NCBI RefSeq assembly: GCF_965641715.1
Contig: NZ_OZ282453.1
DNA from: Escherichia coli
GTDB lineage: Bacteria; Pseudomonadota; Gammaproteobacteria; Enterobacterales; Enterobacteriaceae
DNA: 64,000 nucleotides
Reading direction: 5' to 3' (one strand)
A model generated the notes under the pieces. It was not told the origin of the DNA and ran no database searches. It was given only the letters and a program-made list of their open reading frames with translations. Made by a program: the position numbers and the translations under genes. Below are positions 39,152 through 61,954 of this stretch, piece by piece (position 1 is the first letter of the stretch; every line of letters starts with the position of its first letter).

Positions 39152-39153
39152 CG

Positions 39154-40758: not shown

Positions 40759-40772
40759 AATATCACTCCAGC

Positions 40773-44085: not shown

Positions 44086-44104
44086 ACACCGACCTCAGAA
44101 ATGC

Positions 44105-44132: not shown

Positions 44133-44149
44133 CATTGCACAGTTTGCTT

Positions 44150-44576: not shown

Positions 44577-45497
44577 TTAAATGTATAACGACGATTCTCC
44601 CACCGGGCGCGTTTTAAAGCGACGGTGGATCCAGAGGTACTGCTCCGGTGCGCGCATGATCTCTTTCTCGATAATCTTGTTCATATAGGCAGCGGCTTGA
44701 TTTTCATCTGTCGGGTAGCCTTCCATCTCTGGGGTGATGAACAAACGATATCCGCTGTAATCCGCTTTTCTTACCATCGTTACGGTCAACATGGCTGCGC
44801 CAGAGAGACGGGAGAGAACATAGGTGCCATTGGTTGTGGCGACATTTTCTACCGCAAAGAACGGCGCGAAGGAGCTGCCTTTACGACCATAATCCTGATC
44901 GGGAGCAAACCATACCGCTTCACCTTTCTTCAGTGCACTGACAATGCCGCGCAGATTATTTCTGCCGATCATCGCTTTGTTAGAGCGCATGCGACCACGG
45001 GTCTGCACCCATTCCATCAGCTGATTATTATGTGGACGATAGGTAGCCATCATTGGCTGACAAAGTCCCATCACGCGGCCGCCCAGTTCCAGCGACATAA
45101 AATGGACGCCGACAACCATTACGCCGCGATTTTGCATTTGTGCGCGTTTAAGGTTATCCAGCCCTTCAACATCAAACCATTTACGTACGCGACTGTCGGG
45201 CCAGAACCACGCCATGCCGGTTTCTACCAGCGCCATGCCGAGTGAACGAAAGTTTTCGGCAATCATCTTCTCGCGTTCTTCCGCAGAATGCTGCGGGAAG
45301 CAAAGTTCCAGGTTTTTACGGGCGATAGATTCACGCCGTTTCAGGAATGGTCGCGCCATTGCGCCAATACGCGTGCCGAGAAAGCAGAGAACAGGATAAG
45401 GAAGCTGTACCCAAAGCCAGAGTACACCAAGCCCAAACCATGTGAGCCAGTAGCGAGGATATAGAAACTCGCGGGAAAATTTGCATTGTGGAAACAT
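44577..45497 (-). CDS. lpxP: Lipid A palmitoleoyl-ACP acyltransferase (cold-induced), 306 aa
   Basis: ATG at 45497 gives MFPQCKFSREFLYPRYWLTWFGLGVLWLW...; track ORF extends 22 codons upstream. Confidence 0.9.
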   Translation of the reverse strand: MFPQCKFSREFLYPRYWLTWFGLGVLWLWVQLPYPVLCFLGTRIGAMARPFLKRRESIARKNLELCFPQHSAEEREKMIAENFRSLGMALVETGMAWFWPDSRVRKWFDVEGLDNLKRAQMQNRGVMVVGVHFMSLELGGRVMGLCQPMMATYRPHNNQLMEWVQTRGRMRSNKAMIGRNNLRGIVSALKKGEAVWFAPDQDYGRKGSSFAPFFAVENVATTNGTYVLSRLSGAAMLTVTMVRKADYSGYRLFITPEMEGYPTDENQAAAYMNKIIEKEIMRAPEQYLWIHRRFKTRPVGESSLYI

Positions 45498-45849
45498 AGT
45501 TACCTTCTGTAGATACGAATTGTTGTATCGCAGAAGATTCCATGTCGACAGCGGTACACTCAATTGATTAGGCCATCATGTACGACAATGGTTCCTGTAA
45601 AGAGTGTAAAGACTAGTCAGGACATAACCACGAGGAGCATGAATGCGGTATCTGTACTTTATCACTCGCTGACTGCTTTCAGCTACTGATTATTAATCGT
45701 GCAAAGTAAATATTTTTCCGTACACAACAGTCTTGCATTTAACATGCTGTTTTCATTGATGCTTAGCAAAAATTGCCAGAGATTAAGGATTGTCTTACTA
45801 TTAAAGTGACTGAAGTTACAGGTTTTTTAGCGCGGCAGGAGGTTGAGCT

Positions 45850-46092
45850 ATGATTTATTTATGGATGTTTCTCGCCCTGTGTATTGTCTGCGTAAGCGGA
45901 TACATCGGTCAGGTACTGAACGTGGTATCGGCGGTCTCTTCTTTCTTCGGCATGGTGATCCTCGCTGCACTCATTTATTACTTCACCATGTGGTTAACTG
46001 GCGGTAATGAACTGGTGACGGGGATATTTATGTTTCTTGCCCCGGCTTGTGGCTTGATGATTCGCTTTATGGTGGGGTATGGCAGGCGATAG
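45850..46092 (+). CDS. yfdY: Small inner-membrane protein YfdY (80 aa)
   Basis: Two predicted TM helices (MIYLWMFLALCIVCVSGYIG...). Confidence 0.75.
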   Translation: MIYLWMFLALCIVCVSGYIGQVLNVVSAVSSFFGMVILAALIYYFTMWLTGGNELVTGIFMFLAPACGLMIRFMVGYGRR

Positions 46093-46168
46093 TGGGTCAG
46101 GATGGCTCATTTGGGCAGGTGTTCACATCAGCATCAGACATGATTGTTCACCTGCCAGGTGGCAGACG

Positions 46169-46444
46169 CTATCGCACAGGATGAATAAGATAATTCGCCT
46201 TTGTCGGAAAAGGGGGCGTGGTTTCTTCTGTGAGGTTTAATGGTGGCGCATCTTCTCTCATCTTAAACAAAATTGCCTGTGATGGCTGAATTTTTGTAGA
46301 GTGAGTTGTCGTCATCGCTGATGTTTTTTCCGTCTCTTTATAGCTCCTCTCACTTCCACCACCAGAAATGGAAAATGCAAAAACATTGCATGCCATAATA
46401 GAGACCAATAAAAATAAGCTAAAAAGTATTAAGTTTACTTTCAT
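46169..46444 (-). CDS. ypdI: Small putative lipoprotein YpdI (91 aa)
   Basis: Signal peptide with lipobox-like LVSIMAC (Cys19). Confidence 0.75.
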   Translation of the reverse strand: MKVNLILFSLFLLVSIMACNVFAFSISGGGSERSYKETEKTSAMTTTHSTKIQPSQAILFKMREDAPPLNLTEETTPPFPTKANYLIHPVR

Positions 46445-46739
46445 AGAAAGTTATCCTGAAAATGGTTCACTGAGAATGTACGATGTTATGGCTGTATTTA
46501 CATATAATTAATCAATATTTACATCGATATAATAAATGACATCTCTTTGTGGTACATAAGAATAGTTCTCTGTGACAGGAAGCATATTCCTACAATTGTA
46601 AGACTAAAATACTTCTTGCGATAATAACTACAACTGTAAGATAACCCTTTCAAAATGACCGTTGCTCTCTGATTTCTCATTTCATGCTCACCCAATATGA
46701 TGGCGGCGTTTTCTAAAACTGTTAAAGAATGAGGTAAGT

Positions 46740-47372
46740 ATGAAACGTTTAATTATGGCTACGATGGTCACAGCTATTCTGGCATCTTCAACTGTATGGG
46801 CTGCTGATAATGCACCGGTAGCGGCACAACAGCAAACTCAGCAAGTTCAGCAAACCCAGAAAACGGCAGCAGCAGAGCGTATCTCTGAACAAGGTTTATA
46901 TGCGATGCGTGACGTGCAGGTAGCGCGCCTGGCTCTGTTTCATGGCGATCCGGAAAAGGCAAAAGAACTGACCAATGAAGCTTCCGCTTTGTTGTCAGAT
47001 GACAGTACCGAATGGGCAAAGTTCGCTAAGCCAGGTAAAAAGACCAATCTCAATGATGACCAATATATTGTCATTAATGCATCTGTCGGAATTTCTGAGA
47101 GTTATGTAGCAACACCCGAAAAAGAAGCCGCGATAAAAATTGCCAATGAAAAAATGGCGAAAGGGGATAAAAAGGGCGCAATGGAAGAGCTTCGCCTGGC
47201 CGGTGTTGGTGTAATGGAAAACCAATATCTGATGCCGCTTAAACAGACTCGTAATGCACTTGCTGATGCGCAGAAACTGCTTGATAAAAAGCAATACTAC
47301 GAGGCAAACCTGGCGCTTAAAGGTGCGGAAGATGGAATCATCGTCGATAGCGAAGCACTGTTTGTGAACTAA
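46740..47372 (+). CDS. yfdX: Periplasmic YfdX-family protein
   Basis: 210-aa ORF with signal peptide [21 protein letters not shown]. Confidence 0.85.
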
Positions 47373-47884
47373 TGCTGACAGGCAGTATATTGAGGTAAAG
47401 GATTTAACTCCCTCCAGCCGACAATTTTTTATGACCACAATACGACAGGTTGTGGTCATAAAATTATTTGGCGCTCGCGGTTCTATAAACTCGCATTTTA
47501 TATTCCTCAAAGTAAACCGCAATAATCCCGTGTCATCACAAATCATTTATTATGTTATGTTTTATGGTACGCTTTAAAAAGCGTAATCATACCCTTGCTT
47601 GTAAATCACCGGCGCTTCTTACAGTTGTAAGAATAACATCACAAATGTCGCGGCTCTCTCTGATTACCGCGAGCCAATATTTATCATATTCTTCTTTTCG
47701 TCCTCACTACTTACCATGCGGAAAGGAATTGGAAGTGGCGATGAAATGATTTTCAGCACTTGATACGGGAATTTAAAAATATCGAGTGCCGCTACGACGA
47801 TATTTTGCGGATTATTTATAGAGGGCGTTATGCCTTAAATAAACGCTAAATTAACACATATTTAATTAACTAATAGGTATTGCT

Positions 47885-49135
47885 ATGTCAACTCCACTTC
47901 AAGGAATTAAAGTTCTCGATTTCACCGGTGTGCAATCTGGCCCATCTTGTACTCAAATGCTGGCCTGGTTTGGCGCTGACGTCATTAAAATTGAACGCCC
48001 CGGCGTTGGTGACGTAACGCGTCACCAGCTGCGAGATATTCCTGATATCGATGCGCTTTACTTCACCATGCTTAACAGTAACAAACGTTCTATTGAGTTA
48101 AATACCAAAACAGCGGAAGGCAAAGAGGTAATGGAAAAGCTGATCCGCGAAGCTGATATCTTAGTCGAGAACTTTCATCCAGGGGCCATTGATCACATGG
48201 GTTTCACCTGGGAGCATATTCAAGAAATCAATCCACGTCTGATTTTTGGTTCGATCAAAGGGTTTGATGAGTGTTCGCCTTATGTGAATGTAAAAGCCTA
48301 TGAAAACGTTGCTCAGGCAGCGGGTGGCGCGGCATCCACTACGGGTTTTTGGGACGGTCCGCCGCTGGTAAGCGCTGCAGCGTTAGGAGACAGCAACACC
48401 GGAATGCATTTGCTGATCGGTTTACTTGCTGCTTTGCTGCATCGCGAAAAAACGGGGCGTGGGCAACGAGTCACCATGTCAATGCAGGATGCCGTATTGA
48501 ACCTTTGCCGCGTGAAATTACGCGACCAGCAGCGTCTCGATAAATTGGGTTATCTGGAAGAATACCCGCAGTATCCGAATGGCACATTTGGTGATGCAGT
48601 TCCCCGCGGAGGTAATGCGGGTGGTGGCGGTCAGCCTGGCTGGATCCTGAAATGTAAAGGTTGGGAAACCGATCCTAACGCCTATATTTATTTCACTATT
48701 CAGGAGCAAAACTGGGAAAACACCTGTAAAGCCATCGGCAAACCAGATTGGATTACCGATCCGGCATACAGTACAGCCCATGCCCGACAGCCACATATTT
48801 TCGATATTTTTGCTGAAATCGAAAAATACACTGTCACTATTGATAAACATGAAGCGGTGGCCTATTTGACTCAATTTGATATTCCTTGTGCACCGGTTTT
48901 AAGTATGAAAGAAATTTCACTTGATCCCTCTTTGCGCCAAAGTGGCAGTGTTGTCGAAGTGGAACAACCGTTGCGTGGAAAATATCTGACAGTTGGTTGT
49001 CCAATGAAATTCTCTGCCTTTACGCCAGATATTAAAGCTGCGCCGCTATTAGGTGAACATACCGCTGCTGTATTGCAGGAGCTGGGTTATAGCGACGATG
49101 AAATTGCTGCAATGAAGCAAAACCACGCCATCTGA
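47885..49135 (+). CDS. frc: Formyl-CoA:oxalate CoA-transferase
   Basis: 416-aa class III CoA-transferase [46 protein letters not shown]... Confidence 0.95.
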
Positions 49136-49188
49136 TATTAACGGGGGCTTCTGGCTCCCAATTTATAAAAATTTCGAGGTTATTAATC

Positions 49189-50883
49189 ATGTCAGATCAA
49201 CTTCAAATGACAGATGGTATGCATATCATCGTTGAAGCATTAAAACAGAATAATATTGACACTATTTATGGTGTTGTAGGTATTCCTGTGACGGATATGG
49301 CGCGCCATGCCCAGGCGGAAGGCATTCGTTATATTGGTTTTCGTCATGAGCAGTCGGCAGGCTATGCCGCTGCGGCAAGCGGTTTTCTTACCCAAAAACC
49401 GGGGATCTGCCTGACAGTTTCTGCGCCAGGATTCCTCAATGGTTTGACCGCATTGGCCAACGCAACGGTAAATGGTTTTCCGATGATCATGATTAGCGGC
49501 TCCAGCGACCGCGCGATCGTCGACCTACAGCAAGGTGATTATGAAGAGCTGGACCAAATGAATGCGGCAAAACCGTATGCCAAAGCAGCATTTCGCGTTA
49601 ATCAGCCGCAGGATCTTGGCATTGCATTGGCACGCGCTATCCGGGTCTCCGTATCGGGTCGCCCTGGCGGAGTTTATCTTGATTTGCCAGCAAATGTCCT
49701 GGCCGCGACGATGGAAAAAGACGAAGCGTTAACCACGATTGTAAAAGTTGAAAATCCGTCGCCAGCATTATTGCCATGCCCGAAGTCAGTCACTAGCGCA
49801 ATTTCGCTTTTAGCAAAAGCTGAACGGCCATTAATTATCCTTGGCAAAGGCGCGGCGTATTCACAAGCTGATGAACAGCTTCGTGAATTTATTGAAAGTG
49901 CCCAGTTTCCATTCCTGCCAATGTCTATGGCGAAAGGGATCCTCGAAGATACGCATCCACTTTCTGCGGCAGCTGCGCGTTCGTTTGCCCTGGCAAATGC
50001 TGACGTTGTCATGCTTGTTGGTGCACGACTGAATTGGTTACTGGCACACGGTAAAAAAGGATGGGCGGCAGATACACAGTTTATTCAACTGGATATTGAA
50101 CCGCAGGAAATTGACAGCAACCGCCCCATTGCTGTGCCAGTCGTTGGCGATATTGCATCCAGTATGCAAGGTATGCTGGCAGAACTGAAACAAAACACAT
50201 TTACGACTCCACTGGTATGGCGCGATATTTTAAATATCCACAAGCAGCAAAATGCACAAAAAATGCATGAAAAATTGAGTACAGATACCCAACCATTAAA
50301 TTACTTTAATGCATTAAGTGCTGTGCGCGATGTATTACGCGAGAACCAGGATATTTATTTAGTAAATGAAGGGGCAAATACCCTGGATAATGCACGAAAT
50401 ATTATTGATATGTATAAACCACGTCGTCGTCTGGATTGTGGTACCTGGGGTGTCATGGGCATCGGTATGGGCTATGCCATCGGTGCTAGCGTGACCTCTG
50501 GTTCTCCGGTTGTCGCCATTGAAGGTGATAGTGCTTTTGGTTTCAGTGGGATGGAGATTGAAACGATTTGTCGATATAACCTGCCGGTGACGATCGTTAT
50601 TTTTAATAATGGCGGCATCTACAGAGGAGACGGTGTTGATCTCAGTGGCGCTGGTGCACCATCACCAACAGATCTGTTGCACCATGCAAGGTATGACAAA
50701 TTAATGGATGCGTTTCGTGGCGTTGGCTATAACGTCACCACGACAGATGAACTTCGTCATGCTTTAACCACCGGTATTCAGTCGCGCAAACCGACCATTA
50801 TTAATGTGGTCATCGACCCTGCAGCAGGAACTGAAAGTGGCCATATTACCAAACTTAACCCAAAACAAGTCGCTGGTAATTAA
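49189..50883 (+). CDS. oxc: Oxalyl-CoA decarboxylase (ThDP-dependent)
   Basis: 564-aa ORF with ThDP-binding motif GDSAFGFSGMEIETICRYNLPVTIVIFNNGG. Confidence 0.95.
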   Translation: MSDQLQMTDGMHIIVEALKQNNIDTIYGVVGIPVTDMARHAQAEGIRYIGFRHEQSAGYAAAASGFLTQKPGICLTVSAPGFLNGLTALANATVNGFPMIMISGSSDRAIVDLQQGDYEELDQMNAAKPYAKAAFRVNQPQDLGIALARAIRVSVSGRPGGVYLDLPANVLAATMEKDEALTTIVKVENPSPALLPCPKSVTSAISLLAKAERPLIILGKGAAYSQADEQLREFIESAQFPFLPMSMAKGILEDTHPLSAAAARSFALANADVVMLVGARLNWLLAHGKKGWAADTQFIQLDIEPQEIDSNRPIAVPVVGDIASSMQGMLAELKQNTFTTPLVWRDILNIHKQQNAQKMHEKLSTDTQPLNYFNALSAVRDVLRENQDIYLVNEGANTLDNARNIIDMYKPRRRLDCGTWGVMGIGMGYAIGASVTSGSPVVAIEGDSAFGFSGMEIETICRYNLPVTIVIFNNGGIYRGDGVDLSGAGAPSPTDLLHHARYDKLMDAFRGVGYNVTTTDELRHALTTGIQSRKPTIINVVIDPAAGTESGHITKLNPKQVAGN

Positions 50884-50952
50884 ATACTGACATCGTCTCC
50901 TCTTGCCAACTCATTATGCGATGGTGAGGGGACCCTTATCGGAAATACTATT

Positions 50953-51897
50953 ATGCTAACATTTTTTATTGGCGATTTATTGCCTATTATCGTAATCATG
51001 CTGTTGGGTTATTTTAGCGGCAGACGAGAAACTTTTTCAGAAGATCAAGCCCGGGCATTTAATAAACTGGTTTTAAACTACGCGCTTCCTGCAGCCCTAT
51101 TTGTTTCTATTACCCGGGCAAACAGGGAAATGATTTTTGCGGACACTCGTCTGACCCTTGTATCACTCGTGGTTATTGTCGGATGTTTCTTTTTCTCCTG
51201 GTTTGGTTGCTACAAATTTTTTAAACGTACCCATGCAGAAGCAGCTGTATGTGCATTAATTGCAGGTTCACCTACCATTGGATTCCTGGGGTTTGCAGTT
51301 CTCGATCCTATTTATGGTGATTCCGTATCAACAGGTTTAGTGGTAGCAATTATTTCTATTATTGTTAACGCAATTACTATTCCTATTGGTCTGTATTTGC
51401 TGAATCCTTCCTCAGGAGCGGATGGTAAGAAGAATAGTAATCTGAGCGCATTAATTTCTGCGGCAAAGGAGCCTGTAGTATGGGCACCTGTTCTGGCAAC
51501 GATCCTGGTGCTGGTTGGGGTAAAAATCCCGGCAGCATGGGACCCAACCTTTAATCTGATTGCGAAGGCTAACTCAGGGGTAGCGGTATTCGCTGCGGGG
51601 TTGACTCTGGCTGCACATAAATTCGAGTTCAGTGCCGAAATTGCTTATAACACCTTCCTGAAACTGATTCTGATGCCACTGGCGCTGCTTCTTGTTGGTA
51701 TGGCATGTCATTTGAACAGCGAACATCTGCAGATGATGGTACTGGCAGGCGCATTACCGCCGGCATTCTCCGGAATCATTATTGCCAGCCGGTTTAATGT
51801 CTACACCCGCACTGGTACAGCGTCATTGGCTGTGAGCGTACTGGGTTTTGTCGTCACGGCTCCCTTGTGGATTTATGTCAGTCGACTGGTTTCATAA
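50953..51897 (+). CDS. yfdV: AEC (auxin efflux carrier) family transporter
   Basis: 314-aa multi-TM ORF downstream of oxc. Confidence 0.85.
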
Positions 51898-51970
51898 TTA
51901 ATCATGTTATTGATTTTACATAAATGCCGAAGTGTCTTTTCACCTTCGGCTTTTTTCAAGGCATAAGCAA

Positions 51971-53116
51971 ATGACAAATAATGAAAGCAAAGGGCCGTTT
52001 GAAGGCTTATTAGTTATCGATATGACACATGTCCTTAATGGACCTTTCGGAACTCAACTTCTTTGTAATATGGGCGCAAGGGTAATTAAAGTTGAGCCGC
52101 CGGGTCATGGTGATGATACCCGCACATTTGGTCCCTATGTGGATGGACAGTCACTCTATTACAGTTTTATTAATCATGGTAAAGAGAGTGTGGTTCTTGA
52201 TTTAAAGAATGATCACGATAAAAGTATATTTATAAATATGCTTAAACAAGCTGATGTATTAGCTGAGAATTTTCGCCCAGGTACAATGGAAAAACTGGGG
52301 TTTTCATGGGAAAGGTTACAAGAAATCAACCCGCGCCTCATATATGCTTCATCGTCAGGTTTCGGACATACCGGTCCGCTAAAAGATGCTCCTGCCTACG
52401 ATACCATCATTCAGGCAATGAGCGGGATAATGATGGAAACGGGATACCCTGATGCTCCGCCAGTGCGCGTTGGTACTTCTCTTGCGGATCTATGCGGCGG
52501 TGTCTATTTATTCAGCGGAATAGTGAGTGCACTTTATGGCCGCGAAAAGAGCCAGAGAGGGGCGCATGTCGATATAGCGATGTTTGATGCCACTCTGAGT
52601 TTTCTGGAGCACGGGCTGATGGCATATATCGCGACTGGGAAGTCACCACAACGTTTGGGAAATCGCCACCCCTACATGGCACCTTTTGATGTTTTCGATA
52701 CTCAGGATAAGCCGATTACGATTTGTTGTGGTAATGACAAGCTTTTTTCTGCGTTATGCCAGGCACTGGAGCTTACGGAACTGGTTAATGATCCCCGATT
52801 TAGCAGCAATATTTTACGCGTAAAAAACCAGGCTATTCTTAAACAATATATTGAGCGGACGTTAAAAACGCAGGCAGCTGAAGTTTGGTTAGCCAGAATA
52901 CATGAAGTTGGTGTACCCGTCGCGCCGTTATTAAGTGTGGCTGAGGCCATTAATTTGCCACAAACTCAGGCGAGAAATATGTTGATTGAAGCCGGGGGAA
53001 TAATGATGCCGGGTAATCCGATAAAAATCAGTGGCTGCGCGGACCCGCATGTTATGCCGGGAGCGGCAACGCTCGACCAGCATGGGGAGCAAATTCGCCA
53101 GGAGTTCTCATCATAA
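51971..53116 (+). CDS. yfdE: Acetyl-CoA:oxalate CoA-transferase (class III CoA-transferase), 381 aa
   Basis: ATG at 51971 gives MTNNESKGPFEGLLVIDMTHVLNGPFGTQLL..., paralogous to frc; track ORF extends 13 codons upstream. Confidence 0.88.
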   Translation: MTNNESKGPFEGLLVIDMTHVLNGPFGTQLLCNMGARVIKVEPPGHGDDTRTFGPYVDGQSLYYSFINHGKESVVLDLKNDHDKSIFINMLKQADVLAENFRPGTMEKLGFSWERLQEINPRLIYASSSGFGHTGPLKDAPAYDTIIQAMSGIMMETGYPDAPPVRVGTSLADLCGGVYLFSGIVSALYGREKSQRGAHVDIAMFDATLSFLEHGLMAYIATGKSPQRLGNRHPYMAPFDVFDTQDKPITICCGNDKLFSALCQALELTELVNDPRFSSNILRVKNQAILKQYIERTLKTQAAEVWLARIHEVGVPVAPLLSVAEAINLPQTQARNMLIEAGGIMMPGNPIKISGCADPHVMPGAATLDQHGEQIRQEFSS

Positions 53117-53171
53117 ATGTAAGATGTGCTGGTAAATAGCTCCCACATTTGAACATTGTGGGAGCCGCTAT

Positions 53172-56100
53172 TTAGTCATTTTGCTGACAGAAAACAGCAA
53201 TCTCCTGGTCCAGCTCTGCAATGTGTTCTTTTACAGAGTTCAGCAGCTGAAGAATTTCAGGCTTACTGTCATCTGAAACAGGTGTTATTTCTAACTGATG
53301 GCTAATATTAATCAACTTTTGCAAATTCAGGATGTTAGCCGCACCGTGGATGCGATGAATACACTGATGGAAAGTTCTGTTATCGCCAGCTTGCAGCGCA
53401 TGAAATGCAGCGGGTAGATCTTTATGCGTTTCATGCTGGAAAGTCATGAGAATCTCCTGCATCAGTTGTAGATCGTTCGCCGTATTATTTTTCAGGGCCT
53501 CGATATCAAGGTGGCGATACTGAGGTACAATATGTGCAACCTGGTGTAACTGACTTAAATGTGTTTTCAGTACATCCAGGGTCAACGGTTTGAACAAACA
53601 TAAGTTCATGCCGCAATTTAACCCTTTTTCACGTTCGTTAGCCTGTGCGTTGGCTGTAAGCCCCCAGATGGGTAAGGAAGAATTTTGCTCACGGAGTTTG
53701 CGAGTCAACTCAAAACCATCCATATTCGGCATATTAACGTCAGTAACAAGCAGATCATAATGTTGCATACTGACTTTGTGTAGCGCTTGCACACCATCGG
53801 TGGCTTCATCAACATCATATCCTAATAGATTTAGCTGGCGTTTGAGTAATAGCCTGTTGGTCGGATGATCATCCGCGATTAATATGCTCAACTTTTCAGG
53901 TAGTGTGATAGGTTGTTCTGCTTTTGCCTCGACAGCCGCCACTTGTTGGGTAATTTCTACCGGGATTGTGATCGTAAATGTTGTTCCTATGCCTGGATGA
54001 CTTTCTAATGACAAATCACCCTGCATGTTTTTAATTAATTCTTTGCAGATCATTAAGCCTAAACCAGAACCTGTTTGCTGACGACCTGCACTTGTTTGGC
54101 TATAACGTTTAAACAGTTGTTGTTGTTCTTCCTGTGATAATCCACTTCCAGAATCCATAATCGTCATTTTGATTACAGCGTGGTTGTCATCAATGTGAAC
54201 CAGGGAGGTCGTAATTTTTACTGCCCCCTCGGTGGTAAATTTGAGAGCATTACTCAGTAAATTTGATAAGACCTGCTTAAACGCCTGAGGGTCGATCTTA
54301 ACCAGGTAATGTTCAGGAAACGTACTGCTGCAACTTAATGCGATCGATTTGCTTGCAGCAATCGCACCGAAAGAGTGACAAGTGTTCTGGACTAAAGTAG
54401 GAATATCGACCCATTGTGGTTGAAGTTGATAGTTACCCGATTCAATTTTGTCGACATCAAGGATTTCACCAATTAAGCCGAGGAGTGATTGTCCGGTGGC
54501 GTAGGCAAGTGAAATCGCCTCCACCCGTTGTTCCTTGCTAAGACCAGAACCCGACAGAAGTTCCAGGAAGCCCATAATGGAGCTTATTGGTGTTCTTATT
54601 TCGTGACTCATTGTTGCCAGAAACTGACTTTTTGCGACAGTTGCATTGATCGCTTTATTTCTCTCTACTTCGAGTGCATGAATTAAATCACGCGTCTCGG
54701 TAATATCTTGCCAACCACAAATATAAACAGCATGTTCGCTGGCTGGCAGATTACATAATGTATGCCAGTGATTAATGCATCTTTTCTCGATGCCATTATC
54801 AATTTCAAATACCTGTGTGTATATTGTTCGATTTTCTTTCGTCTCTGCTGTGACTTCATGCGTATTAGAAAAAACATCTTTAAAGGGTGATTCACTGTTT
54901 TCTAATGGCAACATTGCATTTTTGTAGTAATCAGCAGTGAAATAATGTTCAAATGCACTATTGTGACTAATGACATTACCTTGCCAGTTTACAACATAAG
55001 TTGGATTCGGTAAGGAGTCCGAGAGCGCTTTCCGGAATGATATTTGGTTTTCTAAATCACCCTGAATGACTTTACGACGACGAACTGAGCGTAACAGGTA
55101 GAATCCCCATAAAAGGCTACTGCCAACTAATAAAACGGATAATGTCGTAACAATATAAAATTGCTCGCTATAGAGGTCCCATGTGTCAATGGTCACATTG
55201 GGCATTTTAATCCATTTTTCGGTCAGGCGCAGAACTTCGCTTGGGGGGATTGCATTCAGTGCTTTATTAATAATATCCTTAAGTTCCGGTTCTCCGCGAG
55301 GAAAAGCGAACGAAAGCGATGCATTCGGAACGCCGGGAATAAGAAAATGATAAAGTTCATTAGGATAGTAATGGTCGATCATGTAACGTGAATTTAGCTG
55401 TGTCGCGACCAGAGCATCAAGTTCACCTTCCTTGACCTTGTGAAATGCAGCGCTGGCGTTATCGACTTTTATCCACTCTACCTCCGGATACATCTCTTTT
55501 AATTGCGAATGCAGCTCATAATAATATGGAATGGCAACTTTCATTCCTTTTTTTAATGTTTGTTCACTGTCAGGCGCTTTTTGCATGACAAAAACGTAAG
55601 GCGTTGTTATGAAGGCTTCAGCAAATAAAACATTATTTTCTCTATCTTCACTATAAATAGCACCGGGTAATATATCCCATCCGCCGGGATTCAGCTGTGT
55701 TCCAGCATGGATATTGTGTGAAACGGTGATCGGAGAAAAATTTAAACCTGTTTGCAAGGTAATAATATTAAGAATGTCCCCCATAACGCCCCGAACCGAG
55801 CCATTTTCATCCGTCATAGAATAGGGGGGCGAGTAAGGATTTTCCAGCACCTTTAAATCGGGATGCTGCTTAATCCATTGTTTTTCATGTTCAGTGAGTT
55901 CTAATGGTTTGTTCAGAAAGGCCAGGTTTCCTGTATCAAGCCAATTTTGTGATACTTCATAGCGAACTTCATTTGTCAAAGCATCAACAAATCGATTGAG
56001 TACTTCATTAAGAACGACAGATTCTTTTCTGGTCAAGAAAAAATTATATTGACGCGGTGAGTTATAATATTTCACTACATTTAAGGAGTGAGTGAAATAG

Positions 56101-56765
56101 CGGGAAATCATACTGCTGGTAATGATGTTACTACCAATAAAGTAATCATTCTGTCCGGCAGAGACGGATGCTAATGCCTGATATAAATTTGTAAAAGAGA
56201 TAATTGTTGCTTTTGGAAATGATTGATGAATTACCTCGTCAGGGGGATAATTTGCTACTCGAGCAATATTTACTGGTTTTGATGAGGTAAGCGGTCGCAT
56301 TGAATCGTGAAGGGTGGTGACCAGCGCCGGAAAGGTAATTATCAGTGGTTTGGTTGCAGCAATGTCATCATTAAGAGGCGGCGAAGCAACTAAATGTGAT
56401 AACACTATATCGACTTCACCTTCTTCCAGCGCGTCCATTGCTTTTTGATGATCGGCGTATTCCCGGAGTGTTAATTTGATATTTAACGCTCTTTTTAAAA
56501 GATTTAAATAATCAGCATTAATACCACGAACCCGTTGCTGCGAATCGGTATGCAACAACGTAGCCGTTTGGGACTTATGTACTGCAATCACAAGATTTTT
56601 TTTGCTCGCTAACCAACGTAATTCCTTGTTGCTCAGACGTAGTGGATCAAGTGTGACACGGTTGTTACTACTGATGCCACGATATTCGATGTAATCTTCG
56701 TCTGCGAAACTTATGGTCGACCAAAGACCACAACAGAGAAGAAAAATATAGGGTAAAAACTTCAT
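53172..56765 (-). CDS. evgS: Hybrid sensor histidine kinase EvgS
   Basis: 1197-aa ORF: signal peptide, two periplasmic binding-protein-like domains, TM, HisKA (H-box SHEIRTP), HATPase, receiver and HPt domains. Confidence 0.96.
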   Translation of the reverse strand: MKFLPYIFLLCCGLWSTISFADEDYIEYRGISSNNRVTLDPLRLSNKELRWLASKKNLVIAVHKSQTATLLHTDSQQRVRGINADYLNLLKRALNIKLTLREYADHQKAMDALEEGEVDIVLSHLVASPPLNDDIAATKPLIITFPALVTTLHDSMRPLTSSKPVNIARVANYPPDEVIHQSFPKATIISFTNLYQALASVSAGQNDYFIGSNIITSSMISRYFTHSLNVVKYYNSPRQYNFFLTRKESVVLNEVLNRFVDALTNEVRYEVSQNWLDTGNLAFLNKPLELTEHEKQWIKQHPDLKVLENPYSPPYSMTDENGSVRGVMGDILNIITLQTGLNFSPITVSHNIHAGTQLNPGGWDILPGAIYSEDRENNVLFAEAFITTPYVFVMQKAPDSEQTLKKGMKVAIPYYYELHSQLKEMYPEVEWIKVDNASAAFHKVKEGELDALVATQLNSRYMIDHYYPNELYHFLIPGVPNASLSFAFPRGEPELKDIINKALNAIPPSEVLRLTEKWIKMPNVTIDTWDLYSEQFYIVTTLSVLLVGSSLLWGFYLLRSVRRRKVIQGDLENQISFRKALSDSLPNPTYVVNWQGNVISHNSAFEHYFTADYYKNAMLPLENSESPFKDVFSNTHEVTAETKENRTIYTQVFEIDNGIEKRCINHWHTLCNLPASEHAVYICGWQDITETRDLIHALEVERNKAINATVAKSQFLATMSHEIRTPISSIMGFLELLSGSGLSKEQRVEAISLAYATGQSLLGLIGEILDVDKIESGNYQLQPQWVDIPTLVQNTCHSFGAIAASKSIALSCSSTFPEHYLVKIDPQAFKQVLSNLLSNALKFTTEGAVKITTSLVHIDDNHAVIKMTIMDSGSGLSQEEQQQLFKRYSQTSAGRQQTGSGLGLMICKELIKNMQGDLSLESHPGIGTTFTITIPVEITQQVAAVEAKAEQPITLPEKLSILIADDHPTNRLLLKRQLNLLGYDVDEATDGVQALHKVSMQHYDLLVTDVNMPNMDGFELTRKLREQNSSLPIWGLTANAQANEREKGLNCGMNLCLFKPLTLDVLKTHLSQLHQVAHIVPQYRHLDIEALKNNTANDLQLMQEILMTFQHETHKDLPAAFHALQAGDNRTFHQCIHRIHGAANILNLQKLINISHQLEITPVSDDSKPEILQLLNSVKEHIAELDQEIAVFCQQND

Positions 56766-56769
56766 GTGG

Positions 56770-57384
56770 TTAGCCGATTTTGTTACGTTGTGCGAATGTG
56801 TAAAGATCCATCAGTGATTTACATTCTAATTTTTCCATCAGGCGACTTTTATAAGTGCTGACAGTTTTGTTGCTGATGAACATTTTTTCAGCAATGTCAT
56901 TATTATCCTTGCCATCAAGAATATACCGCATGACACTAATTTCTTGTTTCGATAAGGAGTCGAGTTTTTGCTGGTCGGACGTTAAACTTCCAACAAACCG
57001 GTTGAGAGAGAAGGGGAAATAGCAGTAGCCATTTTTTGCAGCTTCAATAGCCGCAATGATATTGTTCATGCCTTCTTTTTTACTCACGAAACCATTAGCG
57101 CCAGCATCAGCACAATGTTTCCCGTAAAAATGGTCATTTTTAGCGGAGACGATAATAATAATTCCGCTATATTGGCGCTTCCTCAGCGTTTCTAACACCT
57201 GGATACCGTTAACTCCGGGGATATCGACATCAATGATGACGATATCAGGCTTAAGTGTTTCCACCCGCTGAACGGCACTTCCGCCTTCAGTCAACTCTGC
57301 TAAGATTTCAATATCGTTTTTGATCAATAAATTACGAATTGCTGCGATAGCAAGAGGATGGTCATCAATAATTATTGCGTTCAT
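56770..57384 (-). CDS. evgA: Response regulator EvgA (NarL/FixJ family)
   Basis: 204-aa ORF MNAIIIDDHPLAIAAIRNLL... with receiver and LuxR-type HTH. Confidence 0.96.
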   Translation of the reverse strand: MNAIIIDDHPLAIAAIRNLLIKNDIEILAELTEGGSAVQRVETLKPDIVIIDVDIPGVNGIQVLETLRKRQYSGIIIIVSAKNDHFYGKHCADAGANGFVSKKEGMNNIIAAIEAAKNGYCYFPFSLNRFVGSLTSDQQKLDSLSKQEISVMRYILDGKDNNDIAEKMFISNKTVSTYKSRLMEKLECKSLMDLYTFAQRNKIG

Positions 57385-57609
57385 AGATTATTCCCTTTGC
57401 AATGAAGCATCTCCCTTCTCCCTGTAGTAATACAGACATAAGGCATCATCTCATTTTCTCAATAAAAATAAGAAAATTTGAGCTTCCTTTAAGATAATTC
57501 GACAAGTATACCATATAAATAGTCGGCATATATGAAATGTCAACAATAAAATCAGGGATTGTACCGATGATTTATAGTTTCACATTAGCACTATAAGTCT
57601 TCTCACTAA

Positions 57610-57626
57610 TCCTACAGGCGTAAGAA
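57610..57626. promoter_or_regulatory. Candidate EvgA-binding inverted repeat in the evgA-emrK divergent region
   Basis: tcctacaggcgtaagaa; on the other strand TTCTTACGCCTGTAGGA resembles the TTCPyTACA / TGTAPuGAA half-site pattern. Confidence 0.35.
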
Positions 57627-57799
57627 TTGTATTGCAAAAGCCACGGTTTAGTCCTCTGTTGTTTTTTTTTCACCTCATTTAAATTAGGCCTCCAACGTTC
57701 CTGGGATAATGTGCAACACATGCACTGTGTTTGATATGAAGAATGAATACTCTTTTCATTCAATTCATAAATTTCATCTATGCGAAATGAGAGATAAAA

Positions 57800-58963
57800 G
57801 TGGAACAGATTAATTCAAATAAAAAACATTCTAACAGAAGAAAATACTTTTCTTTATTGGCGATAGTTTTATTTATTGCGTTTTCAGGTGCTTATGCCTA
57901 TTGGTCAATGGAATTAGAAGACATGATTAGTACAGATGACGCCTATGTCACGGGGAATGCAGATCCAATTTCTGCACAAGTCTCAGGTAGTGTCACTGTA
58001 GTTAATCATAAAGATACGAACTACGTTCGACAGGGTGACATTTTAGTTTCACTGGATAAAACTGATGCCACTATCGCACTCAATAAAGCTAAAAATAATC
58101 TGGCAAATATTGTTCGGCAAACGAATAAACTGTACTTACAGGATAAACAATACAGTGCCGAAGTCGCTTCAGCACGTATTCAGTATCAACAATCTTTAGA
58201 AGATTATAACCGTCGTGTGCCTTTAGCGAAGCAGGGGGTTATTTCAAAAGAAACGCTGGAGCATACCAAAGATACGTTAATAAGTAGCAAAGCGGCATTG
58301 AATGCCGCTATCCAGGCTTATAAAGCGAATAAAGCTTTAGTAATGAACACACCATTAAACCGTCAGCCACAAGTCGTTGAAGCTGCGGATGCAACCAAAG
58401 AAGCCTGGTTGGCGCTTAAACGTACGGATATTAAGAGTCCGGTTACCGGCTATATTGCCCAGCGAAGTGTTCAGGTCGGCGAAACAGTGAGTCCCGGACA
58501 ATCGTTAATGGCTGTCGTACCAGCACGTCAAATGTGGGTTAATGCCAACTTTAAAGAAACACAACTCACGGATGTACGGATTGGTCAATCGGTCAATATT
58601 ATCAGCGATCTTTATGGTGAGAATGTTGTGTTTCATGGCCGGGTGACAGGGATCAATATGGGAACCGGCAATGCGTTCTCCTTATTACCTGCACAAAATG
58701 CGACAGGGAACTGGATCAAAATCGTTCAGCGTGTACCGGTTGAAGTTTCTCTTGATCCAAAAGAACTCATGGAACACCCCTTGCGCATTGGTTTATCGAT
58801 GACTGCAACTATTGATACGAAGAACGAAGACATTACTGAGATGCCTGAGCTGGCTTCAACCGTGACGTCCATGCCGGCTTATACCAGTAAGGCTTTAGTT
58901 ATCGATACCAGTCCGATAGAAAAAGAAATTAGCAACATTATTTCGCATAATGGACAACTTTAA
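57800..58963 (+). CDS. emrK: Multidrug efflux membrane fusion protein (GTG start as read)
   Basis: 387-aa ORF (M)EQINSNKKHSNRRKYFSLLAIVLFIAF..., HlyD-family. Confidence 0.9.
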   Translation: MEQINSNKKHSNRRKYFSLLAIVLFIAFSGAYAYWSMELEDMISTDDAYVTGNADPISAQVSGSVTVVNHKDTNYVRQGDILVSLDKTDATIALNKAKNNLANIVRQTNKLYLQDKQYSAEVASARIQYQQSLEDYNRRVPLAKQGVISKETLEHTKDTLISSKAALNAAIQAYKANKALVMNTPLNRQPQVVEAADATKEAWLALKRTDIKSPVTGYIAQRSVQVGETVSPGQSLMAVVPARQMWVNANFKETQLTDVRIGQSVNIISDLYGENVVFHGRVTGINMGTGNAFSLLPAQNATGNWIKIVQRVPVEVSLDPKELMEHPLRIGLSMTATIDTKNEDITEMPELASTVTSMPAYTSKALVIDTSPIEKEISNIISHNGQL

Positions 58964-60501
58964 TGGCAATCACTAAATCAACTCCGGCACCATTAACCGG
59001 TGGGACGTTATGGTGCGTCACTATTGCATTGTCATTAGCGACGTTTATGCAAATGTTGGATTCCACTATTTCTAACGTCGCAATACCGACAATATCTGGC
59101 TTTCTGGGAGCATCAACAGACGAAGGTACCTGGGTTATCACTTCGTTTGGCGTAGCAAATGCCATTGCGATCCCTGTTACCGGCAGGCTGGCACAAAGAA
59201 TAGGCGAATTAAGGTTATTTTTACTTTCAGTCACTTTTTTTTCGCTGTCTTCCTTAATGTGTAGTTTATCGACCAATCTTGATGTGCTGATATTTTTTAG
59301 AGTCGTTCAGGGGTTAATGGCAGGGCCGTTAATTCCACTGTCACAGAGTTTATTATTAAGGAATTATCCACCAGAAAAAAGAACATTTGCTCTGGCATTA
59401 TGGTCAATGACCGTGATTATCGCTCCGATATGTGGGCCGATATTGGGCGGTTATATTTGTGATAACTTTAGCTGGGGTTGGATATTTTTAATCAATGTCC
59501 CTATGGGGATTATCGTCCTGACATTATGCTTAACCTTACTTAAAGGAAGAGAAACTGAGACTTCACCGGTCAAAATGAATCTACCAGGACTGACCCTGTT
59601 AGTGCTCGGTGTTGGTGGCTTGCAAATTATGCTTGATAAAGGGCGCGATCTGGATTGGTTCAACTCGAGTACAATAATAATATTAACAGTAGTATCAGTT
59701 ATTTCTCTGATCTCTTTAGTCATTTGGGAGTCGACCTCAGAGAACCCGATTCTTGATCTCAGTTTGTTTAAGTCCCGTAATTTCACCATTGGTATAGTGA
59801 GTATCACATGCGCGTATTTATTTTACTCTGGAGCGATCGTCCTTATGCCGCAGTTACTCCAGGAAACGATGGGGTATAATGCGATATGGGCCGGACTTGC
59901 TTATGCGCCCATCGGCATCATGCCACTATTAATTTCACCTTTGATAGGACGTTATGGCAACAAAATAGACATGCGGTTGTTAGTGACATTTAGTTTTTTG
60001 ATGTATGCGGTTTGCTATTACTGGCGTTCTGTGACATTTATGCCAACGATTGATTTTACAGGTATCATTTTGCCGCAGTTTTTTCAGGGATTCGCCGTTG
60101 CCTGTTTCTTTTTACCCTTAACAACGATTTCGTTTTCAGGCTTGCCAGATAATAAATTTGCCAATGCCTCGAGTATGAGTAATTTTTTTCGTACCTTGTC
60201 AGGATCAGTTGGTACGTCGTTGACAATGACGCTGTGGGGACGACGCGAATCGTTACACCATAGTCAGTTAACAGCAACCATCGATCAATTTAACCCCGTG
60301 TTTAATTCATCGTCACAAATTATGGATAAATACTATGGTTCGCTTTCAGGAGTTCTTAATGAAATTAATAATGAAATAACCCAGCAGTCACTTTCTATTT
60401 CTGCAAATGAGATTTTCCGTATGGCGGCTATTGCTTTTATCTTACTTACGGTTTTGGTGTGGTTTGCGAAACCGCCTTTTACAGCGAAAGGCGTTGGGTG
60501 A
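58963..60501 (+). CDS. emrY: Multidrug efflux MFS transporter (14-TM, EmrB-like)
   Basis: 512-aa multi-TM ORF; start overlaps the emrK stop by 1 nt. Confidence 0.93.
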   Translation: MAITKSTPAPLTGGTLWCVTIALSLATFMQMLDSTISNVAIPTISGFLGASTDEGTWVITSFGVANAIAIPVTGRLAQRIGELRLFLLSVTFFSLSSLMCSLSTNLDVLIFFRVVQGLMAGPLIPLSQSLLLRNYPPEKRTFALALWSMTVIIAPICGPILGGYICDNFSWGWIFLINVPMGIIVLTLCLTLLKGRETETSPVKMNLPGLTLLVLGVGGLQIMLDKGRDLDWFNSSTIIILTVVSVISLISLVIWESTSENPILDLSLFKSRNFTIGIVSITCAYLFYSGAIVLMPQLLQETMGYNAIWAGLAYAPIGIMPLLISPLIGRYGNKIDMRLLVTFSFLMYAVCYYWRSVTFMPTIDFTGIILPQFFQGFAVACFFLPLTTISFSGLPDNKFANASSMSNFFRTLSGSVGTSLTMTLWGRRESLHHSQLTATIDQFNPVFNSSSQIMDKYYGSLSGVLNEINNEITQQSLSISANEIFRMAAIAFILLTVLVWFAKPPFTAKGVG

Positions 60502-60608
60502 TGGTAAAAGGAGGGGGTTATAGCGGGTAAGACCGGGGATCTTAAGTCTGCGCCATCGGCAGCATCGCTCACCCAGGGAAAGGATGGCGATGCTGCGTTG
60601 AAACGTTA

Positions 60609-61937
60609 TTAACGGCCTTTTGCCAGATATTGATTCATCTCTTCTTCCGGCACCATTCCACCTCCCGTCGCCCACACCAGATGAGTGGTATTACGCAGTT
60701 GTTCTGCGCTGAAACCGTGCATCTGTTGGTAACTTACTGATGCACACACGCGCTGAGGTCCGGCCATACCCGCCAGTGCCGAAGGTTCAAGACGAATACC
60801 TTCTTCCTGCGCCAGCCAGCCAAGCATGTCATACATGGTTTGATCGCTAAGGGTATAGAAGCCATCCAGCAGACGCTCCATTGCCCGCCCGACAAAGCCT
60901 GATGCGCGACCAACTGCAAGGCCATCCGCTGCGGTAAGGTTGTCGATACCAATATCCTGAACAGAAATCTGATCGTGTAATCCTGTATGGACGCCTAACA
61001 ACATACAAGGGGAGTGCGTTGGTTCGGCAAAAAAGCAGTGAACATGATCGCCAAACGCCAGTTTAAGCCCGAATGCGACGCCACCAGGACCACCGCCAAC
61101 ACCACACGGCAGATAGACAAACAGAGGGTTATCAGCATCGACGATACGGCCTTGCTGGGCAAATTGCGCTTTAAGACGCTGGCCAGCGACGGAATACCCA
61201 AGGAACAACGTGCGGGAATTTTCGTCATCAATAAAGAAACAGTTCGGGTCAGACTGCGCTGCTTTACGTCCTTCCTCGACGGCAACACCATAATCTTGCT
61301 CATATTCCACGACCGTAACGCCATGGCTGCGCAGTTTCGCTTTTTTCCATGCCCGGGCATCAGCAGACATATGCACTGTCACCTTAAAGCCAATGCGGGC
61401 GCTCATTATGCCGATTGACAATCCCAGATTTCCGGTTGAGCCCACAGCAATGCTGTATTGGCTAAAGAACTGTTTAAACTCCTGAGAAAGCAGTTTGCTG
61501 TAGTCATCTTCAAGTGTCAGCAACCCCGCTTCCAGAGCCAGTTTTTCTGCGTGTGCCAGGACTTCATAAATCCCGCCGCGTGCTTTTATGGAGCCGGAAA
61601 TGGGCAAATGGCTATCTTTTTTCAGTAACAGTTGCCCGCTGATCGGTTGTTGATATTCCTTTTCCAGCCGTTTTTGCATAGCCGGAATGGCAACCAGTTC
61701 TGATTCAATAATCCCCCCAGTGGCAGCAGTTTCAGGAAATGCTTTTGCCAGATAGGGTGCAAAACGGGATAAGCGCGCATGGGCGTCCTGAACATCCTGT
61801 TCGGTCAGGCCAACATAAGGTAAACCTTCAGCCAATGAGGTCGTGCCAGGATTAAACCAGGTGGTTTCTTTAAGAGCAACCAGATCCTTTACCAACGGAT
61901 ACTGGGCGATGAGCGAGTTCATTTTAGCGTTTTCCAT
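60609..61937 (-). CDS. dsdA: D-serine dehydratase (PLP-dependent)
   Basis: 442-aa [34 protein letters not shown]... with PLP lysine region (SGSIKARGG). Confidence 0.96.
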
Positions 61938-61954
61938 AGTACGTCTCTTTGCGC

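Follow-up and report, generated by a model that had tools for sequence, protein, structure and literature searches.

Why do ten neighbouring genes of the Escherichia coli chromosome, with the EvgS/EvgA acid-sensing phosphorelay among them, have a base composition so unlike that of the genes around them? The genes are ypdI, yfdX, frc, oxc, yfdV, yfdE, evgS, evgA, emrK and emrY. They lie in a stretch of 64,000 nucleotides from E. coli assembly GCF_965641715.1 (contig NZ_OZ282453.1), which is referred to here, at its full length, as the window. A first-pass annotation, made from the sequence alone, described positions 45500–60600 as an AT-rich block that was horizontally acquired, silenced by H-NS and co-regulated by EvgA. 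Our analysis makes it very probable that positions 46083–60586 are a 14.5-kb regulon-cassette segment, gained horizontally by the E. coli lineage between yfdY and dsdA, and that the low G+C content is a legacy.

The compositional departure sits in coding DNA

By its match to complete genomes, the window spans murQ to dsdX of the E. coli chromosome. The closest of 5,426 complete E. coli genomes over positions 44000–62000 is ETEC6335 (99.2% identity). With the same query, 25 of 5,450 matching records were at least 99% identical. Complete RefSeq E. coli genomes thus include no close relative of the window, whose strain may come from a group not represented there, for instance Shigella. Gene names were taken from the ETEC6335 annotation, which agrees with each gene identity given in the first-pass annotation. 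All 52 mapped genes are intact in the window.

The G+C content is 0.428 over positions 45500–60600. It is 0.516–0.517 to the left (0.517 for positions 1–45499) and 0.488 for positions 60601–64000. An exhaustive search of one block versus the rest returned 45460–60460 as the best single low-GC block (G+C 0.427, log-likelihood ratio 180). The same search on sequence shuffled 200 times in 200-bp chunks gave a mean ratio of 19 and a maximum of 31.5. Intervals of the same size to the left of the block had a G+C content of 0.501–0.530 in 127 of 127 cases. Hence, the AT-richness noted for 45500–60600 is a clear departure in the G+C profile, and that interval is nearly identical to the maximum-likelihood block on raw G+C.

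Four long AT-rich spacers had also been pointed out, and all four are found at the places noted (G+C 0.398, 0.329, 0.375 and 0.335). Core spacers in the window are equally AT-rich (0.35–0.49; for example, 0.352 for nupC–mntH and 0.372 for ypdA–alaC). AT-rich spacers are not particular to the block. The departure sits in coding DNA, which has a G+C content of 0.434 in the block and 0.525 elsewhere in the window, and it is sharpest at third codon positions. Third-position G+C (GC3) is 0.36–0.43 in the ten contiguous genes from ypdI to emrY, compared with 0.42–0.73 in the other 42 (Mann–Whitney p = 1.3e-6). The block genes average 0.40 and the window's other genes 0.57, a difference of ~0.17. The base composition of the block is atypical by both measures, G+C and GC3 being low together. 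Within the block, G+C is 0.454 from yfdX to yfdE and 0.408 from evgS to emrY. This gradient reflects the encoded proteins, because it recurs in the Yersinia and Rahnella-like copies described below.

Relatives lack the block at the syntenic site

Relatives were surveyed via AlaC. This listed 80 Enterobacterales species, which were then searched with proteins from the window; the genus Escherichia was represented by E. coli and E. albertii alone. Among the 80 species listed, yfdX-frc-oxc-yfdV-yfdE follows alaC-lpxP-yfdY in E. coli only.

Genomes whose AlaC matches the E. albertii NBRC 107761 protein exactly are called E. albertii-type here; one of them, GCA_000155105.1, we take to be E. albertii TW07627. 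Their gene order is alaC-ypdK-lpxP-yfdY, then 342 bp of filler, then dsdA-dsdX-dsdC. They align over window positions 32842–46082 (89.6% identity) and 60587–64000 (93.0%), with no match at all to 46083–60586; dsdA and dsdX are syntenic, at 93% nucleotide identity. Since the alignment stops at 46082 and restarts at 60587, the low-GC segment specific to E. coli is 14,504 bp long (46083–60586, G+C 0.428), and this is the true extent of the block. The right side of the interval drawn at first pass, near the end of emrY, stands. Its left start at 45500 was too early, and the edge lies at approximately 46083. Thus, the 80-residue gene yfdY (45850–46092, + strand) is an ancestral flank gene. It falls outside the block on account of its GC3 of 0.60, and its orthologues come after lpxP in Citrobacter, Salmonella arizonae and E. 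albertii-type genomes. The divergent lpxP–yfdY spacer (45498–45849) is also ancestral and outside the acquired block. Its G+C content of 0.398 is like that of core spacers, it is partly alignable to S. arizonae and Citrobacter, and it lies within the 89.6% alignment to an E. albertii-type genome (L096).

In two E. albertii-type loci (L095 and L097), the insertion sequence (IS) IS1 sits in the ypdF region, and alaC is separated from ypdK by a transposase gene of the IS200/IS605 (Y1) type (1160–1857 and 11271–11889). The type-strain contig (L004) ends 53 bp past alaC, probably owing to those transposable elements.

Citrobacter species and S. arizonae have kept lpxP and yfdY and lack the block. 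Enterobacter and Lelliottia have lpxP, one small open reading frame, tRNA-Arg(CCT), yfdC and mlaA, with lpxP ~1.5 kb from the tRNA gene. The E. coli interval from yfdY to argW contains this block and dsdCXA, plus csc genes in ETEC6335. Hence, the interval from yfdY/lpxP to argW, the tRNA-Arg(CCT) gene, is a variable spot, because its contents differ among E. coli, Citrobacter and Enterobacter/Lelliottia. The nearest tRNA hotspot to the block is argW itself, past dsdCXA and beyond the end of the window. In short, the phylogenetic distribution fits the horizontal acquisition suggested in the first-pass annotation. The syntenic site is without the block in E. albertii-type genomes, Citrobacter, S. 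arizonae, Enterobacter and Lelliottia.

The block position in Citrobacter (L005, L011 and others; ~13400–20300) has pgtP, a pgtC-like gene, pgtB and pgtA. PgtP, PgtB and PgtA match NCBIfam equivalogs above cut-off (phosphoglycerate transport and its two-component system). The same chromosomal spot in Citrobacter therefore holds a different two-component-regulated cassette.

The block is species-wide in E. coli. At least 80% of positions 44000–62000 is held in one place by 5380 of 5426 complete genomes (~99%), and EvgS/EvgA occur in virtually every E. coli (PMC5706723). It is a core feature of the species and not a strain-variable island.

A colinear array in Yersinia

Homologues of EvgS are patchily distributed. 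A cluster at 98% identity has 33,752 members, and every named member in a sample of these is E. coli; clusters at 82%, 64% and 54–58% follow. A group at 44% contains Yersinia, Rahnella and Serratia. The 82% homologue belongs to Yersinia of the frederiksenii, alsatica, canariae and vastinensis group. In one such genome (L083; Logan SRR14250202) the genes are arranged emrY-emrK-evgA-evgS-yfdE-yfdV-oxc-frc-yfdX, with order and orientation as in E. coli. Positions 46563–60490 of the window match this locus in one 14,019-bp blastn alignment, at 79.0% identity and with all spacers covered. As a benchmark, core DNA from alaC to lpxP is 79.1% identical to that of S. arizonae, a level equal to that of the block against Yersinia. 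At the amino acid level, identity to Yersinia is 96% for Frc, 94% for EvgA, 93% for YfdV, 91.5% for Oxc, 91% for EmrY, 89% for YfdE, 84% for YfdX, 83.5% for EmrK and 82% for EvgS.

Between E. coli and Yersinia, the block genes have a third-position identity of 0.54–0.63 and a synonymous divergence (dS) of 0.9–1.8; nonsynonymous divergence (dN) is 0.107 for EvgS and 0.034 for EvgA. Flank genes of E. coli compared with Citrobacter, Salmonella and Enterobacter give a similar third-position identity (0.50–0.62). Serratia belongs to the family of Yersinia. Flank genes compared between E. coli and Serratia are more diverged than the block is from Yersinia (third-position identity 0.45–0.53; dN 0.17–0.19 for YpdA and 0.19 for YpdB).

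The flanks of the Yersinia block differ from those in E. coli. At the yfdX end are arsC-arsB-arsR and tRNA-Gly(CCC) (20259–22990), and at the emrY end (5945–6300) is the remnant of a truncated IS3-family transposase (E = 1.8e-4). Yersinia was considered as the direct donor and is unlikely to have been so: a dS of ~0.9–1.8 far exceeds what is expected of a transfer after the split of E. coli and E. albertii, whose flanks retain 90–93% nucleotide identity. Providencia was also rejected. Its frc-oxc-yfdV genes lie next to the formate dehydrogenase genes fdoGHI and a different CoA-transferase gene, without evgAS, emrKY or yfdX, and they are less similar than those of Yersinia (Frc 87%, Oxc 73%).

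Copies in other chromosomal contexts and on plasmids

Three Rahnella/Ewingella-like contigs from soil or other metagenomes (L084–L086; EvgS 58%) carry the nine-gene array between slp and hdeD-like/hdeB (1289–20308). The array comes directly after smpB, the transfer-messenger RNA gene ssrA (1821–2183) and a D5-type primase gene. A search of the 23 kb of this locus for an attachment-site (att) type repeat of the 3′ end of ssrA found none. A further copy (L090; EvgS 54%) has the same gene order as the E. coli array. In another (L091), evgAS adjoins genes for TraC, TraU and TraG.

The L090 copy has yfdE, oxc and frc in short fragments (13761–15792), while emrYK, evgAS, yfdX and hdeD/hdeA-like genes are intact. 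On this sequence, the oxalate part appears to be dispensable there.

Plasmids also carry parts of the array. A 378-kb conjugative IncFIB plasmid of Klebsiella variicola (L088, NZ_CP103421.1, 9950–25114) has evgA, an evgS-like gene (55%), yfdE, yfdV, oxc, frc and yfdX, without emrKY. The segment is bracketed by IS6 and by IS5-IS3-IS1, a layout that resembles a composite transposon. Approximately 20 similar E. coli IncFIB plasmids, of 57–123 kb, have a full evgA-evgS copy with an EvgS that is 97% identical. In the one examined, p89_MLI23-1 (L087, NZ_CP116911.1, 12308–17591), evgAS is flanked by IS1, beside an ariR/ymgB-like gene and within a few kb of qnrS1, blaCTX-M-15 and blaTEM-1. IS elements or remnants flank only the Yersinia and plasmid copies, not the borders in E. 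coli.

Of the marks by which islands are recognised, the block thus has an atypical composition, an empty syntenic site in relatives and a homologous array in unrelated contexts and on mobile elements. It has no mobility hallmarks at its own borders, no atypical dinucleotide signature and no strain-variable presence. The horizontal origin proposed at first pass is supported by the empty syntenic site in relatives, together with the same array at other chromosomal sites and on plasmid segments.

Could the block instead be ancestral to the Enterobacteriaceae at this site and have been lost repeatedly by E. albertii, Citrobacter, Salmonella, Enterobacter and others, its AT-richness arising from weak expression, relaxed codon selection or local mutation bias? 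Fixation of the block in E. coli (5380 of 5426 genomes) would agree with this, as would the lack of mobility genes at its borders in the window, the ordinary dinucleotide signature and the unpolarised filler of E. albertii. However, many independent and precise losses would be needed across the 80 species listed, and the array occupies non-homologous sites in Yersinia and Rahnella-like genomes as well as IS-bracketed plasmid segments. Regional mutation bias is also at odds with the normal GC3 of the neighbours (yfdY 0.60, lpxP 0.55, dsdX 0.54), and weak expression with the other weakly expressed genes of the window, which do not have a GC3 of 0.36–0.43. We regard repeated loss as very improbable.

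A second possibility is piecemeal assembly within the E. coli lineage, the oxalate operon, evgAS, emrKY and ypdI having been gained separately. Sub-modules do stand alone: frc-oxc-yfdV in Providencia, the Klebsiella plasmid array that lacks emrKY, and evgAS by itself on E. coli plasmids and in L091. In addition, ypdI is missing from copies outside E. coli, and the two sub-blocks differ in G+C (0.454 and 0.408). Conversely, the Yersinia alignment is a single unbroken 14 kb, spacers included. Yersinia, Rahnella-like genomes and L090 have the nine genes in the E. coli order and orientation, all nine have diverged to a similar degree, and the G+C gradient is shared by other copies. Since the array is shared whole with Yersinia, Rahnella-like genomes and L090, its assembly predates arrival in E. 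coli. Piecemeal assembly in E. coli is therefore unlikely.

The case of ypdI (46169–46444, − strand; 91 residues, GC3 0.36) is different, as it lies outside the transferable array. It is seen in E. coli alone and is missing from all copies of the array examined outside this species. The protein is 74% identical between the window and another E. coli locus (L003), the products of adjoining genes being 96–99% identical. It matched no NCBIfam family, and the exact protein is not in a collection of 15 billion sequences. Judged by sequence, ypdI and its spacer (46083–46562) look like a separate addition to the block.

Candidate EvgA operators lie in the three long spacers

The 64-kb window was scanned for EvgA boxes, allowing up to three mismatches to a presumed consensus. 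Four matches were obtained (46587, 46625, 47616 and 57609), all of them in the block's three long spacers; this number was reached in 0 of 100 shuffles. Upstream of yfdX there is an 18-bp palindrome with one mismatch (46587–46604; TTCCTACAATTGTAAGAC) and a second, weaker site with three (46625–46642). Upstream of frc the palindrome is perfect (47616–47633; TTCTTACAGTTGTAAGAA). The site in the evgA–emrK spacer has two mismatches (57609–57626; ATCCTACAGGCGTAAGAA). The Yersinia copy has EvgA-box-like sites in the same three spacers (yfdX, frc/yfdX and emrK/evgA), and in the Rahnella-like and Klebsiella copies one such site lies upstream of evgA.

The EvgA regulon was reportedly defined by Masuda and Church in 2002 and 2003 and by Kato in 2000. 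In K-12, EvgA binds inverted repeats upstream of yfdX and yfdW, and the scanned positions agree with Fig. 2 of that work; induction of yfdXWUVE depends on EvgA (PMC3720670). Binding of EvgA to the emrKY promoter is attributed to Kato 2000 in two later papers (PMC9496106, PMC8174306), and emrKY induction in K-12 is EvgA-dependent (PMC9496106, PMC8174306). The co-regulation by EvgA that the first-pass annotation proposed is thus in line with the literature (PMC3720670, PMC9496106, PMC8174306) and with the four candidate palindromes, which appear conserved in Yersinia.

H-NS and promoter-like sequences

The emrKY genes are said to be de-repressed in an hns mutant, an observation ascribed to Nishino and Yamaguchi in 2004. 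In K-12, H-NS prefers the evgA promoter in gel shift assays, and EvgA is among the regulators that H-NS modulates (PMC2984483). Genomic SELEX (systematic evolution of ligands by exponential enrichment) assigned H-NS to the emrK/evgA and yfdX/frc spacers of K-12, and not to those of yfdY/lpxP or oxc/yfdV (PMC3946193). A site within evgS falls in a region bound by H-NS in chromatin immunoprecipitation sequencing, according to Table 1 of a paper that cites Kahramanoglou 2011 (PMC10294691). In addition, evgS is up-regulated when the T4 protein MotB perturbs H-NS (PMC7827196). Documented binding of H-NS in K-12 is limited to four places: the evgA promoter, the two spacers and the interior of evgS. 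H-NS may cover the whole block, and EvgA may act by counter-silencing.

Promoter-like sites number 31 in the block and 13 in core DNA of the same length (~2.4-fold). Each count equals the shuffle expectation, so the excess is fully explained by composition and was rejected as an independent signal. Similarly, matches to a 10-mer H-NS motif (up to two mismatches) occur at 2.2 per kb in the block and 1.2 per kb in core DNA. Composition predicts both values; the motif scan merely mirrors AT content and was also set aside. Even so, AT-richness creates a load of spurious promoters that H-NS is thought to suppress.

Low G+C as a probable legacy

The copies described above differ in composition. Cassette GC3 is 0.31–0.42 in Yersinia (flanks 0.38–0.57) and 0.36–0.43 in the window. 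It is 0.44–0.57 in Rahnella-like genomes, 0.42–0.57 in L090, 0.51–0.59 in a further copy (L089) and 0.47–0.64 on the Klebsiella plasmid. The cassette is never clearly above its flanks: GC3 is similar to that of the flanks in Rahnella-like genomes and lower in the other copies that have comparable flanks.

One explanation is that selection maintains the low G+C content. Binding by H-NS and counter-silencing by EvgA would need AT-rich DNA, and amelioration would be resisted. The block has been present long enough to reach fixation, yet its GC3 is still ~0.17 below that of other genes. Its closest relative, in Yersinia, is AT-rich too (0.31–0.42 against flanks of 0.38–0.57), and H-NS binding is documented at several places. 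However, copies in other hosts have a host-like GC3 of 0.42–0.64 and have kept gene order and at least the emrK/evgA operator, so function does not require low G+C. The density of promoter-like sites is, moreover, exactly what composition predicts. Selection on base composition is an explanation that we consider doubtful.

The preferred explanation remains a horizontal gain of the segment, with low G+C as its legacy. The gain would have occurred on the E. coli stem, once E. albertii had branched off, and the donor would have had a lower G+C content. Several points weigh against this. The low G+C content belongs to the E. coli/Yersinia lineage of the cassette and not to the cassette as such, because GC3 is 0.42–0.64 in the Rahnella-like, L089, L090 and Klebsiella plasmid copies. 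The 342-bp E. albertii-type filler has no homologue in any other locus examined and hence cannot polarise the change; gain versus loss is decided by outgroups, and only parsimony across these favours a gain in E. coli over a loss in E. albertii. Neither border (46083 and 60586) shows an integrase, an IS, an att-like direct repeat or a tRNA gene within the window. The dinucleotide signature does not set the block apart: its δ* is 49, and same-size core segments have a mean of 32 and a maximum of 49. This value is within the core range and δ* was dropped as a sign of foreignness; an ordinary signature fits a donor within Enterobacterales. Timing is crude, since dS (0.9–1.8) is near saturation and provides only a rough clock. 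The 18-bp palindrome used in the scan, TTCYTACANNTGTARGAA, is one that we presume to be that of Masuda and Church in 2003 and Itou in 2009. Finally, all of the EvgA and H-NS experiments cited were done with K-12, a different strain from that of the window.

Taken together, the data suggest the following scheme. The core of the segment, 46563–60490, would be a self-contained regulon cassette consisting of the EvgS/EvgA acid-sensing phosphorelay, three target units and their 18-bp operators. The predicted target transcription units are yfdX, frc-oxc-yfdV-yfdE and emrKY. Low G+C, mainly at third positions, would be the trace, not yet erased, of residence in a lower-GC enterobacterial background. 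H-NS would bind the AT-rich DNA and keep basal expression low, as the K-12 literature suggests, and would probably hold down the ~2.4-fold surplus of promoter-like sequences as well. When the pH is mildly acidic, EvgS would phosphorylate EvgA, which would bind the palindromes and switch on the efflux pump, YfdX and the pathway that decarboxylates oxalyl-CoA.

Organisation of the block

The conserved transferable module (46563–60490) comprises yfdX, frc-oxc-yfdV-yfdE, evgS-evgA and emrK-emrY with their spacers. It begins within the ypdI–yfdX spacer (46445–46739, G+C 0.329). The yfdX gene (46740–47372, + strand, GC3 0.40) is annotated as encoding a periplasmic YfdX-family protein. Just downstream, in the yfdX–frc spacer (47373–47884, G+C 0.375), is a terminator-like hairpin with a 15-bp stem (47427–47463, + strand). 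This strong hairpin fits yfdX and frc-yfdE being separate transcription units. The next annotated genes are frc (47885–49135), oxc (49189–50883), yfdV (50953–51897) and yfdE (51971–53116), all on the + strand and with a GC3 of 0.41–0.43. They serve oxalate-CoA metabolism and include a transporter (PMC3720670).

On the − strand are evgS (53172–56765, GC3 0.38), annotated as a hybrid sensor kinase, and evgA (56770–57384), annotated as a NarL-type response regulator. EvgS homologues carry the Pfam domains SBP_bac_3, HisKA, HATPase_c, Response_reg and Hpt. Beyond the divergent evgA–emrK spacer (57385–57799, G+C 0.335) are emrK (57800–58963) and emrY (58963–60501), both on the + strand, with a GC3 of 0.37–0.41. 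They are annotated as components of a tripartite efflux pump of the major facilitator superfamily.

The right junction falls in the convergent emrY/dsdA spacer (60502–60608, G+C 0.55). Its dsdA-proximal hairpin (GCAGCATCGC...GCGATGCTGC) has a counterpart in E. albertii-type genomes and is part of the ancestral dsdA flank. To the right, dsdA and dsdX (60609–63292, − strand; GC3 0.48 and 0.54) lie outside the block. An Rfam scan of positions 44000–61000 found no RNA family.

Comparison with known systems

The block corresponds to a locus of E. coli K-12 whose tags are, we presume, b2376–b2367. That locus, ypdI-yfdX-frc(yfdW)-oxc(yfdU)-yfdV-yfdE-evgS-evgA-emrK-emrY, has the same genes, order, orientation and spacers. 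In K-12, EvgA binds inverted repeats ahead of yfdX, frc and emrK (PMC3720670, PMC9496106), the places where the window has its candidate palindromes. The window comes from a strain other than K-12. None of its ten block genes is disrupted, and no functional difference could be detected from the sequence.

The notion of AT-rich islands silenced by H-NS is reportedly due to Navarre, Lucchini and Oshima in 2006 and to Kahramanoglou in 2011. Two papers cite work on such xenogeneic islands (PMC10294691, PMC3946193). Like them, the block is low in G+C, is absent from close relatives, has documented H-NS sites and has an excess of promoter-like sequences. Unlike them, it has no integrase, att site or IS at its borders and does not vary from strain to strain, being fixed in E. 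coli. It also comes with an activator and operators of its own and so does not depend on a regulator of the host.

The acid fitness island of E. coli consists of slp-dctR-yhiD-hdeBA-hdeD-gadE-mdtEF-gadWX-gadA, next to arsRBC. Like the block, it is an acid-resistance cluster in which a regulator is combined with periplasmic protection and an efflux pump, and YdeO and GadE connect it to EvgA. It is a separate E. coli locus with different genes, ~1.2 Mb from the block. Homologues of slp and/or hdeD-hdeB flank the evg block in Rahnella-like genomes and L090. The Yersinia copy lies against arsC, a position taken in K-12 by the acid fitness island (arsRBC-slp). A common origin of the two loci is a conjecture, hinted at by the slp/hde flanks in Rahnella-like genomes and the arsC neighbour in Yersinia. 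In its widest form, which we put forward tentatively, the block would be one lineage of a ~14-kb 'plug-and-play' cassette that moves whole among Enterobacteriaceae, Yersiniaceae and conjugative plasmids, and both acid-resistance islands of E. coli would descend from one contiguous island, slp-emrYK-evgAS-yfdEVUWX-hdeD-hdeB, an arrangement that Rahnella-like genomes still show. If this were true, descent from a single island would explain why EvgA is still atop the acid fitness island network.

Klebsiella pneumoniae has EvgAS-type phosphorelays, kvgAS and kvhAS, that are clustered with yfdX and hdeDB and occur in only some strains (PMC6394985). These clusters lack emrKY and the oxalate operon (PMC6394985), whereas the K. 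variicola plasmid copy has frc-oxc-yfdV-yfdE. Bordetella BvgAS is a distant homologue. EvgS has the same architecture, with two periplasmic solute-binding-type domains, PAS, histidine kinase, receiver and Hpt, and BvgAS, like EvgAS, feeds a NarL-type regulator (PMC9496106). The two systems differ in regulon, signal and genomic context.

Other observations in the window

Between pdeA and nupC there is an insertion of ~1.35 kb (25498–26896) that is absent from ETEC6335. It has inverted arms of 45 nt (25504–25548 and 26842–26886), GGGAATTATCCC repeated at both ends and a 372-residue IS4-family transposase (133 bits, cut-off 115). Its terminal sequence, CATAAGCGCTAACTTAAGGGTTG, looks like that of IS186, which we believe K-12 to have at the same spot. 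The genes cysP-cysT-cysW-cysA (2710–6521) are 96.3–98.0% identical to those of ETEC6335, compared with 99–100% for most neighbours; on this basis, the stretch is probably a recombination patch.

Implications

Much of the biology of this locus is established, as the first-pass annotation itself remarked. EvgAS, its targets, control by H-NS and absence from Salmonella were already known. Current understanding of EvgAS, H-NS and acid resistance is not overturned. We found no paper on the block's evolutionary origin or on the Yersinia copy, and none on the exact empty site, the 14-kb colinearity with Yersinia or the IS-flanked plasmid copies. These last three points are useful detail and no surprise. 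What is gained is the exact limits of the segment, the true empty site at yfdY|dsdA in E. albertii-type genomes and evidence that the nine-gene array travels as a unit.

The locus is a clean case of a stress-response circuit gained together with its regulator and operator sites, and its base composition still marks the acquisition after fixation in the species. The evgAS genes are now also found on IS-flanked segments of multidrug-resistance plasmids. There, a second, plasmid-borne phosphorelay that senses acid and activates efflux could alter the phenotype of the host.

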